Positions 26,404-50,099 are shown, numbered from the stretch's first letter. The stretch: DNA of 64,000 bases from Klebsiella michiganensis (GCA_000963575.1 CP011077.1:112288-176287), one strand, 5' to 3'. Notes: a model not told the origin generated them from the sequence alone. Numbers and translations are program-made.

Positions 26404-26455
26404 TCGTTAACCCGGCATCGCTCTATAATTGAACAATGTATGCGCATTGTTATGG
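26400..26455 (+). promoter_or_regulatory. putative ccdAB promoter (TTGATC-18-TATAAT) with an overlapping palindromic operator
   Basis: -10 TATAAT at 26424-26429; inverted repeat aacaatg-N6-cattgtt (26432-26451) with an internal atgcgcat palindrome, immediately upstream of the antitoxin start. Confidence 0.5.
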
Positions 26456-26463
26456 GGGTTAAT

Positions 26464-26703
26464 ATGCGTGTTGAAGGTGTAGCCGCCAAAAAATCGGTGA
26501 ATGTCACGCTCGCGCCGGAGATTCTGGATGAGGCCCGTAAGCTGAAGTTAAACATCTCGGCGGTACTGACCGAGGCATTAATCGAGAAATTTCGCGAAAA
26601 CGCTCGGGCAGAGTGGCTCAGGGACAATCAGGAAAAGATCGCCGTGCTTAATGAGTTTGTTGAGGAGCACGGCTCGTTCAGTGATTTTCAGAGGACCTTC
26701 TGA
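26464..26703 (+). CDS. ccdA: CcdA-family type II antitoxin
   Basis: …VNVTLAPEILDEARKLKLNISAVLTEALIEKFRENARAEWLRDNQEKIAVLNEFVEEHGSFSDFQRTF aligns with F-plasmid CcdA (…NISGLV…RAERWKAENQEGMAEVARFIEMNGSFADENRDW); ATGA stop/start overlap with the next gene. Confidence 0.85.
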   Translation: MRVEGVAAKKSVNVTLAPEILDEARKLKLNISAVLTEALIEKFRENARAEWLRDNQEKIAVLNEFVEEHGSFSDFQRTF

Positions 26704-27017
26704 TGGAACAGTTTCACGCCTACGAGAATACTGGCGCAGGGAAGAAAACGTATCCTTATCTCATCAATATGCAGCATCCCATTGCTGATGCCTTAAAGCA
26801 TGCCCTGGTCATTCCCGTTATTGAGCGCGAATTACTGGGGGCCATGCCTCCAGAAAAAATCTGCCCCATCGTGACTATTGAGGGGCGGCCTTGCGTGGCG
26901 ATGACTCACATGATGGCAGGTATTCCGCTTAAAGAACTCGGTGCTTCGGTCGCTGATTTGACGCATTACAGAGATGAGCTGTGTGGCGCCGTTGATTTTA
27001 TGATTCAGGGTTACTAA
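26703..27017 (+). CDS. ccdB: CcdB-family gyrase-poisoning toxin
   Basis: 104 aa; …VIPV…PIVTIEGRPCVAMTHMMAGIPLKELGASVADLTHYRDELCGAVDFMIQGY aligns with F CcdB (…VIPL…[50 protein letters not shown]). Confidence 0.8.
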   Translation: MEQFHAYENTGAGKKTYPYLINMQHPIADALKHALVIPVIERELLGAMPPEKICPIVTIEGRPCVAMTHMMAGIPLKELGASVADLTHYRDELCGAVDFMIQGY

Positions 27018-28326: not shown

Positions 28327-29259
28327 TTATTTTTTGTCGTCTGGCTTCGGCGTTATCGCTTTTCCAGACCAATAACCGGCCAGCAGAGAGCCCGAAAGAT
28401 TGTGCCAGACGGAGAACAACGCGCCAGGCAACGCTGCGAGCGGGGAGAAGTAGATTTTGCCCAGCGTGGCCGCAAGACCGGAGTTCTGCATCCCCACCTC
28501 GATGGCCAGCGTCCGGCAGGTGGATTCATCAAAGCCAAACAGCCGCCCGCCCCAGTAGCCGCCGAGCAGGCCAATGGTGTTATGCAGAATGACCGCGACA
28601 ATCACTACCAGACCAACGGAGGCGATGTGTGATGCCGAACCTGCCACAACCGCGCTAATGATGGCGAGAATGCAGAGCATGGAAAACGCGGGCAGCCACG
28701 GTTCCACCCGCTTCACCAGGCGTGGGAAAAGGTGATGCACAATCAGGCCAAGGCCAATCGGGATGATGACGATTTGCAGAATGCTGACCAGCATGCCCAT
28801 CACATCGACTTTAATGTCGGCATCTACATAGAGACGGGTGAGCAGCGGCGTGGCGAAAACGCCGACCAGCGTGGAAACCGATGAGATTGTCACGGAGAGC
28901 GCAACGTCGCCTTTCGCAAGATAAATCATGACGTTGGACGCCGTGCCGCTGGCTACGCTGCCGACCAGCACCATCCCGGCTGAAAGATCGGGCGGCATAT
29001 GGAATAGCATCGCCAGCAGCCACGCCGCCAGCGGCATCACCAGGTAATGCAGAAAAATCCCTGCGGCCACCGGTGCCGGGCGCGACAGCACGCGTTTAAA
29101 GTCTTCAAGTCGCAGATGCACGCCCATACCAAACATAATGAGCATCAGCAGCGTGCTGACCCACGGGCCAATCGGCGTAAAGGTTGAGGGGGTATAATAC
29201 GCAGCGACGGAGAGCAGCAGTGCCCAGAGCGGGAACAGCCGGGTTAGAGTGGCGAACAT
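28327..29259 (-). CDS. bile acid:sodium symporter (BASS) family transporter
   Basis: 310 aa polytopic membrane protein with BASS-family signature regions (…[11 protein letters not shown]…, …NSGLAATL…); no E. coli K-12 counterpart at this locus. Confidence 0.8.
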
Positions 29260-29428: not shown

Positions 29429-31006
29429 TTAGCCGTCGTGGACGCTCTCCCAGCTAAGGTTAAAACGCGCCAGATATTTACGCAGGCGGTCAGCATCATT
29501 AGGGTTTGCCTTTTTCAACCGCGAGACGGCAAAGAGTTCGCGTCCGGCCTCGGAAAGCGACTGGGTGCGGCGGCAAACCTCCAGCACGGTTTCAAGTTGG
29601 CGCCTATCGAACAAGTCTATATCTGGATTGAGCGTTGTTTCGGGAGAGGCGATTTGCCAGCTCTCTTTAAGCTGCGAGATCTCTTCTTGCACAGTGTCCA
29701 GCGCGATCCGCCCTTGCTCGGACAGGGTCGCCATACGTGATACGGACGAGCTGAGCTCGCGGAAGTTACCGCGCCATTGTGCCTGTGCAGAACAGGCAAA
29801 ATTCAGATAATGGTCCCTGGCCTCTTTATCAAAACGTATCTGCGTTTGTGCTTCGGTAGAGAAGCGTTGCAGTTCGTACTCTACGTTGGGCGCAATGTCT
29901 TCCCGCCGCTGCGCCAGACCCGGCAGGGCAAAACTCCACATATTAATCCTGGCATAGAGATCTTCGCGAAAGCGGCCCGCCGCAACCCACTGGCGCATAT
30001 CCCGGTGGGTGCCTGCAATTAGCTGGAAATCGCTCTGTACCTCTTTATCGGAGCCAAACGGAAAAAACGTTTTTTCTTCGATAGCTTTAAGCAGCATGGC
30101 TTGTTCGTCCAGCCCCAGCTCGGCGATTTCGTCCAAAAACAGTACGCCCCCGTCGGCCTCACGTAATAGCCCTGTACGTGCCGTCAACGCGCCGGTGAAC
30201 GCCCCTTTGACGTGCCCGAATAGCGTGGACATCGCGTTATCACCCCGCAGCGTGGCGCAGTTTACCGCCACAAACTTGCCGCCAACCTGGTGGCGAGCTT
30301 GCTTGAGCTGGTAAATGCGTTTTGCCAGGAAAGATTTGCCCGCCCCGGTAGGGCCGGTAAGTAACATGGGGGCCGCGGATCGGAGCGCAACCCGCTCAAT
30401 GCGATCGATAAGCTGGTTAAAGGTGGCATTTCGCGTGTCGATGCCCGCTTTCAGGAAAGAAATGGACCGTTGCTGCTCGCGCTGAAAGCGACTGGTTAAG
30501 GTGGTATAGCGACTTAAATCGAGGTCGATAACCGAGTAAGTTCCTGCGGGAGAGCCTTCTTCTGGGGTGCCTTTCTGGGCCGGGCTGGTTTGCAGCAAGC
30601 TGGCGGGGAGGTAGCGCGCCTCCGTTAAAAGAAACCAGCAAATTTGTGCGACATGCGTTCCGGTGGTGATATGCACCAAATACTCTTCATTTTCGGTATC
30701 GAAATCGTACCGGGTAGCAAAATCAAGAAAGGCGGCGTACACCTCTTCAAAGTCCCACGGATCTTTGATTGTGACCTGATGCCTGCGTACCTCCGTATCG
30801 GGCGAAACACGCGCGATATCGTCTGATAACTGCTCCGTCATGCCGGAATCTCTCGGCTGATAAAGCAGCTCGAGCCGGTCAACGGGGAAGTCCGGCTGCT
30901 GGCAAAGGCCAACCGTTGGTCGCCATTTATGGAAACGATTTGCCCGCTTGCCGCGTTTATCCAGCACCGTGCCCAGCACGCCAATCACCACACGCCGTTT
31001 TTTCAT
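29429..31006 (-). CDS. rtcR: sigma-54-dependent transcriptional activator RtcR (N-terminal CARF domain, AAA+ domain with GAFTGA, C-terminal HTH)
   Basis: 525 aa; Walker A GPTGAGKS, GAFTGA loop (GHVKGAFTGA), overall match to RtcR including the N-terminal CARF-like region; divergent from an rtcB-containing operon. Confidence 0.93.
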   Translation of the reverse strand: MKKRRVVIGVLGTVLDKRGKRANRFHKWRPTVGLCQQPDFPVDRLELLYQPRDSGMTEQLSDDIARVSPDTEVRRHQVTIKDPWDFEEVYAAFLDFATRYDFDTENEEYLVHITTGTHVAQICWFLLTEARYLPASLLQTSPAQKGTPEEGSPAGTYSVIDLDLSRYTTLTSRFQREQQRSISFLKAGIDTRNATFNQLIDRIERVALRSAAPMLLTGPTGAGKSFLAKRIYQLKQARHQVGGKFVAVNCATLRGDNAMSTLFGHVKGAFTGALTARTGLLREADGGVLFLDEIAELGLDEQAMLLKAIEEKTFFPFGSDKEVQSDFQLIAGTHRDMRQWVAAGRFREDLYARINMWSFALPGLAQRREDIAPNVEYELQRFSTEAQTQIRFDKEARDHYLNFACSAQAQWRGNFRELSSSVSRMATLSEQGRIALDTVQEEISQLKESWQIASPETTLNPDIDLFDRRQLETVLEVCRRTQSLSEAGRELFAVSRLKKANPNDADRLRKYLARFNLSWESVHDG

Positions 31007-31141
31007 TTTTATCCTAAAAGATAAATATCGATATTAAAGGATAAAAAATAGCGCTATATCCGACAAGGCTTGAACCAGGGTTTATTTTTAAAATATTTAT
31101 TAATCATCATATTATGGGATTTATTTATCTTTTTTATTTTC

Positions 31142-31157
31142 TGGCACGCTTCTGGCA
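31142..31157 (+). promoter_or_regulatory. sigma-54 (-24/-12) promoter TGGCACGcttcTGGCA driving the divergent operon
   Basis: GG at 31143-44 and GC at 31155-56 with the canonical 12-nt spacing; matches TGGCACG-N4-TTGCW in 14 of 15 specified positions; AT-rich region upstream. Confidence 0.75.
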
Positions 31158-31167
31158 ATAACGTAAA

Positions 31168-31436
31168 TGTGTTTAGCACAAAGGGGGTTAAACCCCACCG
31201 GCACGCCAGGAACGGTACAGACTGTTTTTCGGGCGTGTTCCGTAGGTGAGAACGCACAGACAAGGGTTCGATTCCCAATTCATAACTGGTTGTTAACGAA
31301 GAAAGTCACACAGGAGCCTTGAGCTGTCAGCAAGCTCCGAAGAGGGTCGCCGGTAATGGCGCCGGGCCGCAGGCAAAAAGGAATTCCCCTGCAGTCTCGC
31401 TCCCTTACCCGCGCCTGATTTTTAAGGAACAGGAAA
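31168..31436 (+). ncRNA. long structured 5' leader or candidate non-coding RNA (tRNA T-arm-like GGGTTCGATTCCC plus several hairpins) between the sigma-54 promoter and the first ORF
   Basis: approximately 270 nt without a convincing ORF; hairpins at 31184-31196, 31209-31241, 31321-31337; GGG-TTCGATT-CCC at 31264-31276 is identical to a tRNA T-loop consensus. Confidence 0.35.
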
Positions 31437-32564
31437 ATGATGAAGAAAATAACAATACGCAAAGGTCAACTGGGGCTGCTGGCGAAGCAGGGCGATTACT
31501 ATCAGGTTCTGGAAGCGGGTGAACACCGGCTGCCTTGGTTTAGCCAGCCGGAAGTGCTGGTGGTGAATCTGGATGGCAGCGAAGTTCCTGAAATGCTCGC
31601 GCTGTATTTACGTCGTTTCCAGCCCGACTGGGTTGAACGCTACTGCCTGACCGTGGATCTGGCGGATGGCGAAATCGGCGCTTTGTCGGTAAACGGCATT
31701 TTGCAGGAAATTTTACCCCCTTTAACGCAGCGTTTGTTCTGGCAGGCCGGGGAGACGTTGACGCTGGCACGCATCGATACCCAAACCGTACAGGTGCCCG
31801 CCGAAATAATGAATGCAGTTCTGCAGCCACGTCGAAGCGGCGCGGTGAAAGGGCGAGATGCCATCCTGGTCGTTTCTGTGCCAGCCTGGCACGTTGGCGT
31901 CATAAAAATTGATGGTGAAACTCAGGCGCTGTTACCGCCGGGCATGACCGCATGGTGGAAAATAAATCATTTGGTTGAAGCCGAAGTGGTGGATACCCGC
32001 CTGCAGGCTCTGGAGGTCGGTGGGCAGGAGATCCTGACCAAAGATAAGGTAAACCTGCGTTTAAACATGGCCGCAAACTGGCGCTACAACGATGTGTTAC
32101 AGGCTTTTGGCCAATTAACTAAACCAGTAGAGCATTTGTATCGTGAGCTGCAATTTGCGCTGCGAGAAGCGGTAGGGACGCGAACGCTGGACGAGTTGCT
32201 GGAGGATAAGCAAGTTATTGATGAGGTCGTCAGCGCACAGGTAAAAAACCGCACAGCCCCGTTCGGTATCGAAATAGCCTCGCTGGGCGTAAAAGACATT
32301 GTGTTGCCGGGCGACATGAAAACCATTCTGTCCCGGCTTGTAGAGGCTGAGAAATCGGCGCAGGCCAATGTAATTCGTCGGCGTGAAGAGACGGCGGCCA
32401 CGCGTTCGCTGCTGAATACCGCAAAGGTGATGGAAAACAACCCGGTAGCGTTGCGCTTAAAGGAACTGGAAACGCTCGAAAGAGTCGCGGAACGTATTGA
32501 TAAAATTTCCGTATTTGGCGGCCTGGATCAGGTTCTACACGGACTGGTTAATCTCAAAGGATAA
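31437..32564 (+). CDS. cytoplasmic SPFH/band-7 (slipin-like) domain protein
   Basis: 375 aa; C-terminal half has the SPFH pattern (…TKDKVNLRLNMAANWRYNDV…GIEIASLGVKDIVLPGDMK… coiled-coil tail); no N-terminal TM helix; the N-terminal approximately 150 aa looks like a second, partial SPFH-like beta region. Confidence 0.8.
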   Translation: MMKKITIRKGQLGLLAKQGDYYQVLEAGEHRLPWFSQPEVLVVNLDGSEVPEMLALYLRRFQPDWVERYCLTVDLADGEIGALSVNGILQEILPPLTQRLFWQAGETLTLARIDTQTVQVPAEIMNAVLQPRRSGAVKGRDAILVVSVPAWHVGVIKIDGETQALLPPGMTAWWKINHLVEAEVVDTRLQALEVGGQEILTKDKVNLRLNMAANWRYNDVLQAFGQLTKPVEHLYRELQFALREAVGTRTLDELLEDKQVIDEVVSAQVKNRTAPFGIEIASLGVKDIVLPGDMKTILSRLVEAEKSAQANVIRRREETAATRSLLNTAKVMENNPVALRLKELETLERVAERIDKISVFGGLDQVLHGLVNLKG

Positions 32565-32568
32565 GAAA

Positions 32569-33795
32569 ATGCAGAATAACGAATTTCAACTGTTGGCGGC
32601 GGAAAACAGCGCGCCGATAAAAATGTGGACCCACGGCGTACCGGTTGAGCCGGAGGCGCGCGAGCAATTGCTGAACACGGCGAAGATGCCGTTTATTTTT
32701 AAACATCTGGCGGTGATGCCGGATGTGCATCTCGGAAAAGGATCAACTATCGGCAGCGTTATTCCCACCAAAGGCGCCATTATACCGGCGGCGGTTGGGG
32801 TCGATATTGGTTGTGGAATGATTGCCGTGCGCACCTCGCTGGCGGCGGGCGATCTGCCGGATAACCTCAGCGGATTGCGCAGTGCGATTGAACAGGCGGT
32901 GCCTCATGGCCGAACCAACACGCGCTCTCGCCGTGATAAAGGCGCGTGGAGCACACCGCCTGAAGAGGTTGACGGGCATTGGTCGCAGCTGGCACCACGA
33001 TTTAAGCGCCTGACGGACAAATACCCGAAGCTGCTGAAAACCAACAATTATCAACATATGGGGACGTTGGGCACCGGTAACCACTTTATTGAAGTTTGTC
33101 TGGATGAGCAGCAGAGAGTATGGGTGATGCTGCACAGCGGATCGCGCGGTGTGGGAAATGCCATCGGGAATCTTTTTATCGCCCTGGCGCAGAAGGATAT
33201 GCAGCAGCACATGGCCAATCTGCCGGACAAAAACCTGGCTTACTTTCAGGCAGGCAGCCAGCACTACGATGATTACATCGAAGCGGTGGAGTGGGCGCAG
33301 GACTTTGCCCGCCATAATCGGGAGGTCATGATGTCTCGCGTGCTGGCCGCGCTGTCGCGTATTGTTAGCAAACCGTTTATGACGCAGCAGGAAGCGGTGA
33401 ATTGCCATCATAACTACGTGCAACAGGAAACGCATTTTGGTGAGGAAGTGCTGGTCACCCGTAAGGGGGCTGTTTCGGCACAGAAAGGCCAGATGGGCAT
33501 CATTCCAGGTTCTATGGGGGCCAAAAGCTTTATCGTGCGTGGACTGGGAAACGAACAAAGTTTTTGCTCTTGTAGCCACGGCGCCGGGCGCTCCATGAGC
33601 CGAACGGCGGCTAAAAATCGCTTTACCGTTGAGGATCAGATACGCGCCACCGCCCATGTTGAGTGCCGTAAAGACAGTGAAGTGATTGATGAAATTCCGA
33701 TGGCTTATAAAGACATTGATGCCGTCATGGCGGCGCAGTCTTCGCTGGTGGAAATTGTGCATACGCTCCGGCAGGTCGTCTGTGTAAAAGGATAA
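32569..33795 (+). CDS. rtcB: RNA-splicing ligase RtcB (3'-phosphate/5'-OH RNA ligase)
   Basis: 408 aa from MQNNEFQLLAAENSAPIKMWTHGVPVE…; near-identical to E. coli RtcB, including the metal-binding His/Cys residues (…HNYV…, …CSCSHGAGR…); the ORF track's upstream extension to 32497 is not supported by homology. Confidence 0.96.
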   Translation: MQNNEFQLLAAENSAPIKMWTHGVPVEPEAREQLLNTAKMPFIFKHLAVMPDVHLGKGSTIGSVIPTKGAIIPAAVGVDIGCGMIAVRTSLAAGDLPDNLSGLRSAIEQAVPHGRTNTRSRRDKGAWSTPPEEVDGHWSQLAPRFKRLTDKYPKLLKTNNYQHMGTLGTGNHFIEVCLDEQQRVWVMLHSGSRGVGNAIGNLFIALAQKDMQQHMANLPDKNLAYFQAGSQHYDDYIEAVEWAQDFARHNREVMMSRVLAALSRIVSKPFMTQQEAVNCHHNYVQQETHFGEEVLVTRKGAVSAQKGQMGIIPGSMGAKSFIVRGLGNEQSFCSCSHGAGRSMSRTAAKNRFTVEDQIRATAHVECRKDSEVIDEIPMAYKDIDAVMAAQSSLVEIVHTLRQVVCVKG

Positions 33796-33798
33796 AAA

Positions 33799-34587
33799 AT
33801 GACTTACAACGGAGTAGATGCCGCAATGCGCGAGCGGGTACGGCATCAATTAGCAGAAGTAGAACGGCGCTTTGGCGTACGGGTGCTTTATGCCTGCGAG
33901 TCCGGCAGCCGGGCCTGGGGTTTTGCTTCCCCGGACAGCGATTATGACGTGCGGTTTTTATACGTTCATCTCCCGGAATGGTATCTGCGGGTTGATGCCG
34001 GCAGGGATGTGATTGAATTGCCTATTGATGATGAGCTGGATGTCTGCGGCTGGGAATGGCGTAAAGCGCTCGGTCTGTTGAAGGGCGCGAACCCGACGCT
34101 TATCGAGTGGCTGGATTCGCCGGTTGTTTATCAGCAGGATGAGGCTGTAATCGCCGAGCTGAAAGCGCAGGTTCCCCGCTGGTTTTCGCCGCTGCGGGCT
34201 CGCTGGCACTATTACTCCATGGCGCGTAAAAACTTTCGCGGCTACCTGCAGGGCGATGAAGTGCGTCTGAAAAAGTACTTCTACGTGCTGCGCCCGCTGC
34301 TGGCTGTGCGTTGGGTAGAAGAAGGAAAGGGCGTCCCGCCGATGCGTTTTGCTGAATTGCTGGCGGGAAGTAACCTGGATGCGTCTCTGCGTAAGGAAGT
34401 GGACGAGCTGCTGGAGATCAAACGGGGCGTCGGGGAAGCGAAATACGGCCCGCGCCGGCCGCTGTTGCATGAGTTTATCGTCTCTGAGCTGGCGCGAGGC
34501 GAAATCCCGCCCGCGCTGCCGGACAGCCGCGAGGGCGATAGCCGCGAACTCGACCGGCTGTTGATGAAAACCGTATTGAACACATAA
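33799..34587 (+). CDS. Pol-beta-superfamily nucleotidyltransferase (minimal NTase fold plus helical C-terminal domain), co-operonic with rtcB in place of rtcA
   Basis: 262 aa; classic NTase motif hG[SG]…DhD in YACESGSRAWGFASPDSDYDVRF; starts 4 nt after the rtcB stop. Confidence 0.8.
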   Translation: MTYNGVDAAMRERVRHQLAEVERRFGVRVLYACESGSRAWGFASPDSDYDVRFLYVHLPEWYLRVDAGRDVIELPIDDELDVCGWEWRKALGLLKGANPTLIEWLDSPVVYQQDEAVIAELKAQVPRWFSPLRARWHYYSMARKNFRGYLQGDEVRLKKYFYVLRPLLAVRWVEEGKGVPPMRFAELLAGSNLDASLRKEVDELLEIKRGVGEAKYGPRRPLLHEFIVSELARGEIPPALPDSREGDSRELDRLLMKTVLNT

Positions 34588-34626
34588 AAAAGGCCCGGTA
34601 TACGCGATGTTGCCGGGCCTTTTTCT
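34586..34626. terminator. bidirectional intrinsic terminator between the NTase gene and lysC
   Basis: aaaaaggcccggtatacgcgatgttgccgggccttttt. Confidence 0.8.

Positions 34627-48746: not shown

Positions 48747-50099
<1,353 letters not shown>

Follow-up and report, generated by a model that had tools for sequence, protein, structure and literature searches.

An RtcR-linked SPFH–RtcB–RlaP operon in Klebsiella michiganensis, a probable RNA-repair locus whose leader is best read as a decayed tRNA-like RNA

We analysed a stretch of 64,000 nucleotides (nt) from Klebsiella michiganensis (GCA_000963575.1 CP011077.1:112288-176287), hereafter the window, and concentrated on positions 29,429 to 34,626, where the gene for the sigma-54 activator RtcR diverges from an operon encoding a soluble SPFH/Band-7 protein, the RNA ligase RtcB and the nucleotidyltransferase RlaP. 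This operon is real and conserved; its gene set was already described by comparative genomics in 2016, according to papers that cite this work, and is present in Pseudomonas aeruginosa. What sets the window copy apart is that RtcA has been lost and that its tRNA-like leader is degenerate. The locus is organised as follows:

29429-31006, minus strand: rtcR, encoding a CARF sensor, a sigma-54 AAA+ activator and a helix-turn-helix, 525 amino acids (aa) (NCBIfam and Pfam)
31006-31133, no strand assigned: AT-rich upstream region with candidate RtcR sites, or upstream activating sequences (TTTATC/GATAAA repeats)
31142-31157, plus strand: sigma-54 promoter, -24 TGGCAC and -12 TGGCA (pattern search)
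31170-31436, plus strand: structured 5' leader of about 267 nt, with seven helices including a T-arm (covariation across eight species)
31264-31276, plus strand: T-arm-like hairpin GGGUUCGAUUCCC (covariance model and Rfam transfer-messenger RNA (tmRNA) T-arm fragment)
31437-32564, plus strand: soluble SPFH/Band-7 ('slipin') protein, 375 aa (Pfam Band_7)
32569-33795, plus strand: RtcB, a 3'-phosphate/5'-OH RNA ligase, 408 aa (Pfam and identity to the E. coli enzyme)
33799-34587, plus strand: RlaP, a Pol-beta nucleotidyltransferase, 262 aa (Pfam PF10127)
34591-34625, both directions: intrinsic terminator common to the convergent lysC (read from the sequence, AAAAAAGGCCCGG...CCGGGCCTTTTT)

The regulator was assigned to RtcR by the NCBIfam equivalog NF038308 (831 bits, cut-off 650), and Pfam resolves it into an RtcR/CARF domain (residues 3-188), a Sigma54_activat domain (residues 192-357) and an AAA_lid; it shares 62% identity with RtcR of E. 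coli K-12. The promoter facing rtcR, TGGCACGCTTCTGGCA, is one of two exact matches to the sigma-54 pattern in the window, against 0.29 expected, the other being located at 49864-49879 on the plus strand (TGGCACAGCAGTGGCA). It is kept in the enterobacterial, Burkholderia and Pseudomonas loci, and transcription is predicted to start near 31169, about 267 nt ahead of the SPFH start codon. The TTTATC/GATAAA repeats, at 31006-31047 and 31122-31133, adjoin the start codon of rtcR. The motif is kept in Citrobacter, E. coli, Burkholderia and Photobacterium, and the rtcR-rtcB intergenic region of K-12 displays a similar ATCCTTATAAAAGACGATA beside the rtcR start. We infer that these repeats are candidate RtcR binding sites.

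The ligase matches Pfam RtcB with 440 bits and is 72% identical to E. coli K-12 RtcB, an enzyme that seals 3'-phosphate or 2',3'-cyclic phosphate ends to 5'-OH ends. Its metal-ligand and HGAGR motifs, including the nucleophile histidine, line up with those of solved RtcB structures. Translation probably starts at the ATG at 32569, giving 408 aa, and not at the TTG at 32497; CP139439.1, a public genome with the exact same locus, annotates RtcB as 408 aa. The nucleotidyltransferase is RlaP: it matches PF10127 with 318.5 bits (cut-off 23) over positions 1-249 of the 249 positions of the profile. A sequence search of the PDB with this protein returned no match. The ESGSR motif (E34-S35-G36-S37) and residues D48, D50 and D81 are invariant among 14 homologues, and the family is reported to possess 'three strictly conserved aspartic acids' (PMC12776372). 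The name stands for RNA-ligase-associated Pol-beta nucleotidyltransferase and was given in 2016 for the linkage of the family to RNA ligases. RlaPs of P. fluorescens and P. aeruginosa attach 1-2 nucleoside monophosphates (NMP) to RNA 3'-OH ends in vitro, with a preference for a mimic of cleaved tRNA, and the function proposed for them is to replace nucleotides taken off by 'smart' ribotoxins (December 2025 preprint, PMC12776372). The window RlaP shares 56-60% identity with the RlaPs of the fetched Pseudomonas loci described below and keeps the GS motif and the three aspartates; like the Pseudomonas enzymes, it would add 1-2 NMP.

An earlier note on this DNA had placed four open reading frames (ORFs) here and read them as an RtcR/sigma-54-controlled set comprising a 375-aa SPFH protein devoid of membrane anchor, RtcB and a 262-aa Pol-beta nucleotidyltransferase. 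The ORF list and the family scans agree with these positions and identities, and the profile search further places the nucleotidyltransferase in a named family. It put the nucleotidyltransferase 4 nt after the RtcB stop; the RtcB stop and the ATG of RlaP are separated by 3 nt, and the SPFH stop and the ATG of RtcB by 4 nt. It was also right on two absences: tblastn with two RtcA sequences detected no RtcA homologue in the whole window, and the Pfam scan assigned every ORF of the operon to a family other than TROVE/Ro60, so that no ORF is left over for Ro60. The note overlooked the conserved structured leader of about 267 nt, to which we return below.

To place the operon among its relatives, 85 loci were surveyed, 80 of them fetched from the 595 SPFH relatives found by a profile search of one-genome-per-species contigs, and 5 taken from plasmid-labelled records. 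Greedy clustering of ORFs in GC-rich loci yielded spurious antisense 'families' (clusters 4, 5, 20 and 21) and was discarded for tblastn. RtcB is adjacent to the SPFH gene in 39 of the 85 loci, RlaP in 20, and both are present in 13. A divergent rtcR was found in 32 of the 85, and 25 of these also carry the sigma-54 motif, which occurs in only 4 loci lacking rtcR. Two Burkholderia species display the exact order of the window, rtcR | SPFH-RtcB-RlaP, without RtcA, and the Firmicute Subdoligranulum carries SPFH-RtcB-RlaP without RtcR. The gene association is conserved across phyla, and these counts show that it is not a chance adjacency. RtcA itself is present in 11 of the 85 loci. Because eight of the 13 loci with both RtcB and RlaP also carry RtcA, the other five lacking it, RlaP is an add-on and not a substitute for RtcA, contrary to the earlier proposal that the nucleotidyltransferase stands in the place of the cyclase. 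RtcA is variably present and has been lost independently.

Most other Enterobacterales (Citrobacter, Klebsiella, Superficieibacter, Lonsdalea and Mangrovibacter) carry rtcR | SPFH-RlaP without RtcB, from which we conclude that the window represents a fuller and probably ancestral form. Megablast of the whole window locus against E. coli genomes gave no match; with the E. coli version as query, the module was found. In 1632 of 5426 complete E. coli genomes (~30%), the sigma-54 promoter, the leader, the SPFH gene and RlaP occupy the yjbD-lysC slot and have no rtcB or rtcR beside them (strain STEC639, L002:5650-7925), and K-12 lacks the module (L088:4360-6234). RtcR encoded at the rtcBA locus may activate the E. 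coli module in trans. These two distributions fit an alternative in which leader, SPFH protein and RlaP constitute the enterobacterial core, a unit for end healing or RNA quality control rather than ligation, and RtcB is a passenger that can be dispensed with, a canonical rtcBA locus providing it in trans. However, RtcB is the commonest protein partner of the SPFH family outside Enterobacterales, as the 39 loci counted above attest, and in the window it is embedded between the SPFH and RlaP genes with spacers of 3-4 nt. We consider this alternative unlikely.

The SPFH protein matches Pfam Band_7 over residues 147-318. Because its highest Kyte-Doolittle mean over 19 residues is only 1.43, and falls within a predicted beta strand, it has no transmembrane segment; no NfeD partner gene is present in the operon. 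The AlphaFold2 model, which is confident (predicted local distance difference test, pLDDT, 87.5), begins with two beta-rich modules (approximately residues 1-130), continues with the SPFH domain and has long helices at residues 292-354. In this model, the succession of an SPFH domain and long C-terminal helices resembles that of the membrane-anchored SPFH scaffolds HflK/C, QmcA and stomatin, and structural comparison gave figures of 17.1 for stomatin PH1511, 16.1 for HflK, 15.8 for prohibitin and 14.6 for QmcA. The figure for the major vault protein was 9.9, with 243 residues aligned; a resemblance of the N-terminal modules to those of the vault was considered, and we do not claim a vault-like fold. 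The family comprises 538 clusters at 50% identity (E < 1e-30), mostly full length. Some relatives, in Providencia, Gilliamella and Pseudomonas soli, reach 500-550 aa with extra N-terminal modules (L010:7001-8530, L022:3304-4869 and L033:7001-8521; proteins P0122, P0125 and P0127), suggesting that the number of beta modules varies.

The leader preceding the SPFH gene is conserved in Citrobacter and E. coli, and folds into seven helices in an alignment of eight enterobacterial species (alignment A3). Both sides are changed in 33 of the 62 pairs of this structure, 92.7% of the cells are paired, against ~46% after shifting the 3' partners by 1-3 columns, and none of 500 shuffles reaches the observed values. 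Folding of the single sequence was no better than shuffles (z = -1.25), the structure being seen by comparative analysis only. The T-arm hairpin is the sole recognisable tRNA feature left in the window leader. It is matched by a fragment of the Rfam tmRNA T-arm and by a covariance model of the b7a RNA, the tRNA-like RNA associated with Band-7 genes, which we built from 11 beta-proteobacterial pairs, each made of a mini-helix unit and, after it, a cloverleaf unit (compensatory changes in 12 of 23 base pairs). In the window, this b7a model matches the 13-nt T-arm only, with 11.6 bits and E ~2e-4. No tRNA was called in the leader by ARAGORN, and Rfam gave nothing, YrlA included, even at E ≤ 10.

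Outside the enteric bacteria, the picture is that of a tRNA-like RNA. Most non-enteric loci reach 75-150 bits with the b7a model in the region preceding the SPFH gene, and the scores step down in Enterobacterales, to 20 bits in Mangrovibacter and 16 in both Lonsdalea and Superficieibacter. One or two T-arm motifs lie at the equivalent position in Photobacterium, Burkholderia and Subdoligranulum, and a search with an nhmmer profile built on A3 hit the tRNA-like region, at its first unit, in a locus from Burkholderiales (E = 4e-7). In the fetched loci, many of the units that immediately precede the SPFH gene are recognised by ARAGORN as tRNAs, their anticodons being arbitrary, and one Burkholderiales unit scores 47.5 bits on Rfam tRNA, with a weak YrlA match. 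Given the equivalent position, the surviving T-arm, the nhmmer link and the model scores falling across Enterobacterales, the window leader is best read as a decayed and restructured descendant of the Band-7-associated tRNA-like RNA.

In 67 of the 85 loci, a T-arm motif is found on the coding strand within 900 nt upstream of the SPFH gene (background, 0.12 per 900 nt), and 42 loci have two such motifs about 70 nt apart with covarying stems. When ARAGORN tRNAs within 6.5 kb are counted alongside the T-arm motif, 81 of the 85 loci possess a tRNA-like element upstream of the SPFH gene. No partner is linked more tightly to this SPFH family than the leader RNA. Two rtcR | SPFH-RtcB loci, those of Pseudomonas entomophila and P. 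soli (L018 and L033), lack both the T-arm motif and an ARAGORN tRNA upstream; their RNA partner may be lost or have diverged further. A subtype lacking RtcR consists of same-strand arrays of 5-25 tRNA genes, an HNH protein of ~190 aa, a tRNA-like pair, the SPFH gene and often RtcB (L071:2533-6670, L083, L035, L019, L062 and L014, upstream of the SPFH gene at ~7001). A link between tRNA arrays, HNH proteins and rtcB is known in cyanobacteria, where the SPFH gene is not mentioned (PMC8421152).

The tRNA-like units, and in some loci the arrays, that precede the SPFH gene on its own strand raise the question of whether the leader is a cis-acting sensor or decoy, that is, a tRNA mimic cut by anticodon nucleases or ribotoxins that soaks up the toxin or feeds cyclic-phosphate fragments to the CARF domain of RtcR, the SPFH protein having a separate role. 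A 'sponge' role has been proposed for the array tRNAs of Anabaena, whose array is co-regulated with rtcB (PMC8421152), and tRNA fragments bind the CARF domain of RtcR (PMC7790460, PMC9650030). By contrast, loci without RtcR also pair the tRNA-like RNA with the SPFH gene (81 loci have the RNA, 32 have RtcR), and the level of the tRNA-like RNA PA4581.1 is unchanged when the P. aeruginosa rtc cluster is induced (PMC13637947). Moreover, the window leader has lost the anticodon arm and the cloverleaf, and would thus be a poor decoy for anticodon nucleases. Taken together, we regard this explanation as quite improbable.

At its 3' end, the operon is separated from the convergent lysC by a GC-rich hairpin between A and T runs, which on the minus strand also gives a weak terminator-type Rfam match (STnc40). 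In E. coli K-12, yjbD abuts lysC directly, with nothing between, which makes the locus an insertion by comparison with K-12, as the earlier note had stated. A gene encoding a 310-aa SBF-like protein (bile acid:sodium symporter family) lies in the insertion between yjbD and rtcR (28327-29259, minus strand); Citrobacter has a RelE/XRE toxin-antitoxin pair at this place. Further out, a CcdA/CcdB toxin-antitoxin pair is found between the yjbB-like gene and rluF (26440-27017, plus strand), and the lysC leader contains the expected, ordinary lysine riboswitch (RF00168, 36094-36314, minus strand, 85.8 bits).

An insertion that varies between genomes, controlled by a regulator whose CARF-AAA-HTH architecture is listed in PADLOC, could belong to an anti-phage defence or abortive-infection module, a role that the earlier note had put forward, and the literature frames RNA-repair systems as conflict systems (PMC6514570). 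Among the PADLOC 2.0 defence models, however, RtcR alone finds a match, and the SPFH protein, RtcB and RlaP find none. The module contains neither a toxin nor a nuclease effector, and all its catalytic parts mend RNA, none of them damaging it. In addition, the locus lies on the chromosome, keeps its synteny between genera and does not reside in a defence island. The anti-phage role receives no support from these comparisons, and we grant it only the slightest chance of being right.

The reading we favour, and consider probable, is that of a damage-induced RtcR/sigma-54 RNA-repair operon of the Band-7/b7a-tRNA type, in which RtcB seals RNAs, RlaP rebuilds their ends, and the SPFH protein and the leader form a scaffold; the RNA-damage response proposed by the earlier note is retained. 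The CARF domain of RtcR holds the activator in check and binds tRNA fragments, and an RNA with a 2',3'-cyclic phosphate end has been put forward as the signal that triggers activation (PMC7790460, PMC9650030). RNA damage would therefore generate tRNA fragments with such ends, which would lift the CARF repression, as shown for Salmonella and E. coli RtcR, and RtcR would then activate the sigma-54 RNA polymerase at 31142-31157. The spacing of the genes suggests that the leader and the three genes are carried on a single transcript. By likeness to the E. coli enzyme, RtcB would join 3'-phosphate or 2',3'-cyclic phosphate ends to 5'-OH ends, while RlaP, in keeping with the activity of the Pseudomonas enzymes in vitro and the function proposed for them, would rebuild trimmed 3' ends. 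By analogy with HflK/C, stomatin and QmcA, the soluble SPFH protein may oligomerise via its C-terminal helices; it may also bind RNA, and the scaffold that it would form with the leader could hold broken RNAs or repair enzymes, like the role proposed for Ro60 and Y RNA.

Several observations weigh against this reading. RlaP yields a 3'-OH and RtcB requires a 3'-phosphate, an incompatibility flagged by the authors of the preprint themselves (PMC12776372). RtcA and RtcB also bind the CARF domain (PMC7790460, PMC9650030), and in E. coli both help to activate RtcR (PMC9650030), yet the window operon lacks RtcA. Close relatives (Citrobacter and Klebsiella) lack RtcB too. Deletion of the P. aeruginosa SPFH homologue, PaFlo8, altered none of the phenotypes tried (PMC13086221). 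Finally, a cloverleaf b7a-tRNA is undetectable in the window by ARAGORN, Rfam or the b7a covariance model, and an RNA-dependent model may thus not apply as it does in other taxa.

A more specific version of the repair reading, tentative and with a rather low chance, is that the anchorless SPFH protein, in which two additional beta modules occupy the N-terminus, builds a soluble ring or cage in the cytoplasm and carries RNA derived from the leader. The resulting ribonucleoprotein (RNP) scaffold, akin in logic to Ro60-Y RNA or to the vault, would bring the ends of broken tRNA or rRNA together with RtcB and RlaP; the enteric RNA would have evolved from a tRNA mimic into a new structured RNA and kept only its T-arm. 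If so, it would represent a previously undefined RNA family, present as well in about 30% of E. coli genomes. In either case, the pairing of the SPFH protein with its linked RNA is very widespread (538 clusters, tRNA-like elements in 81 of 85 loci), and the remaining value of the locus lies in this unexplained SPFH-RNA pair, accessible in enteric bacteria. The enterobacterial form is compact and genetically tractable: the window operon has all three genes, and E. coli strains carry the promoter, the leader, SPFH and RlaP.

How does this operon compare with known systems? Membrane SPFH cages (HflK/C, QmcA-YbbJ, stomatin, prohibitin and flotillin) differ from the window protein, which has neither a transmembrane or hairpin anchor nor an NfeD partner. 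The E. coli rtcR | rtcBA locus shares with the window the sigma-54 promoter and the similar sequence beside the rtcR start; in K-12, however, the leader is only ~45 nt long and RtcA is present, with no SPFH protein and no RlaP, the opposite of what the window displays. The Salmonella rsr-yrlBA-rtcBA operon, encoding Ro60 and the tRNA-like Y RNA YrlA, is likewise under RtcR control, and its arrangement, a ring or scaffold protein and a tRNA-mimicking non-coding RNA ahead of RtcB, may be analogous in logic to that of the window. By contrast with Salmonella, the window operon has no TROVE/Ro60 gene and no YrlA match, and the SPFH protein is unrelated to Ro60.

The closest counterparts are found elsewhere. 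The adjacency of a Band-7 protein and a b7a-tRNA to RtcB is credited to Burroughs & Aravind 2016 in bioRxiv 10.1101/312249, which describes the RNA as not validated. The features shared with the window are the Band-7 gene next to RtcB, RlaP as an accessory, and an upstream RNA on the same strand; unlike b7a, the window RNA fails all tRNA detectors beyond its T-arm. Our survey of 85 loci reproduces this association of Band-7 gene, tRNA-like RNA and RtcB. In P. aeruginosa, PA4581-PA4585 is laid out as rtcR | tRNA-like PA4581.1 - SPFH PA4582/PaFlo8 - RtcB - RlaP PA4584 - RtcA (PMC8619066, PMC13086221, PMC13637947). This RtcB operon was described with RtcA, two conserved unknown proteins, PA4582 and PA4584, and a divergent RtcR (PMC8619066); PA14_60630/PaFlo8 is an SPFH protein within the rtc locus (PMC13086221); the PA4582-PA4585 proteins are induced together, and PA4581.1, an odd tRNA-Arg without CCA located between rtcR and the cluster, was detected by quantitative reverse-transcription PCR (PMC13637947). 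The window shares with it the divergent rtcR, the sigma-54-type arrangement, the SPFH-RtcB-RlaP order and an RNA between rtcR and SPFH, and its proteins are 53-57% (SPFH) and 75-77% (RtcB) identical to those of the fetched Pseudomonas loci, which belong to other species, the layout of the PAO1/PA14 locus being taken from the papers cited here and from PMC12776372. The two differ in that the P. aeruginosa cluster ends in RtcA, absent from the window operon, and that its RNA is tRNA-like, whereas the window RNA has no cloverleaf and keeps a T-arm only, in a restructured leader.

The earlier note had described this gene content as non-canonical and of unknown mechanism. RlaP, however, is a named family with a known activity, and the P. 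aeruginosa layout was already described; with the Band-7/b7a-tRNA-RtcB linkage also on record, the claim of novelty does not stand, the gene set being largely an already named system, which the note itself had listed as a refutation. The operon is the PA4581-PA4585 arrangement minus RtcA, with a decayed tRNA-like RNA, and the three 'unusual' genes are to be annotated as the Band-7/RlaP branch of Rtc RNA repair rather than as a new system.

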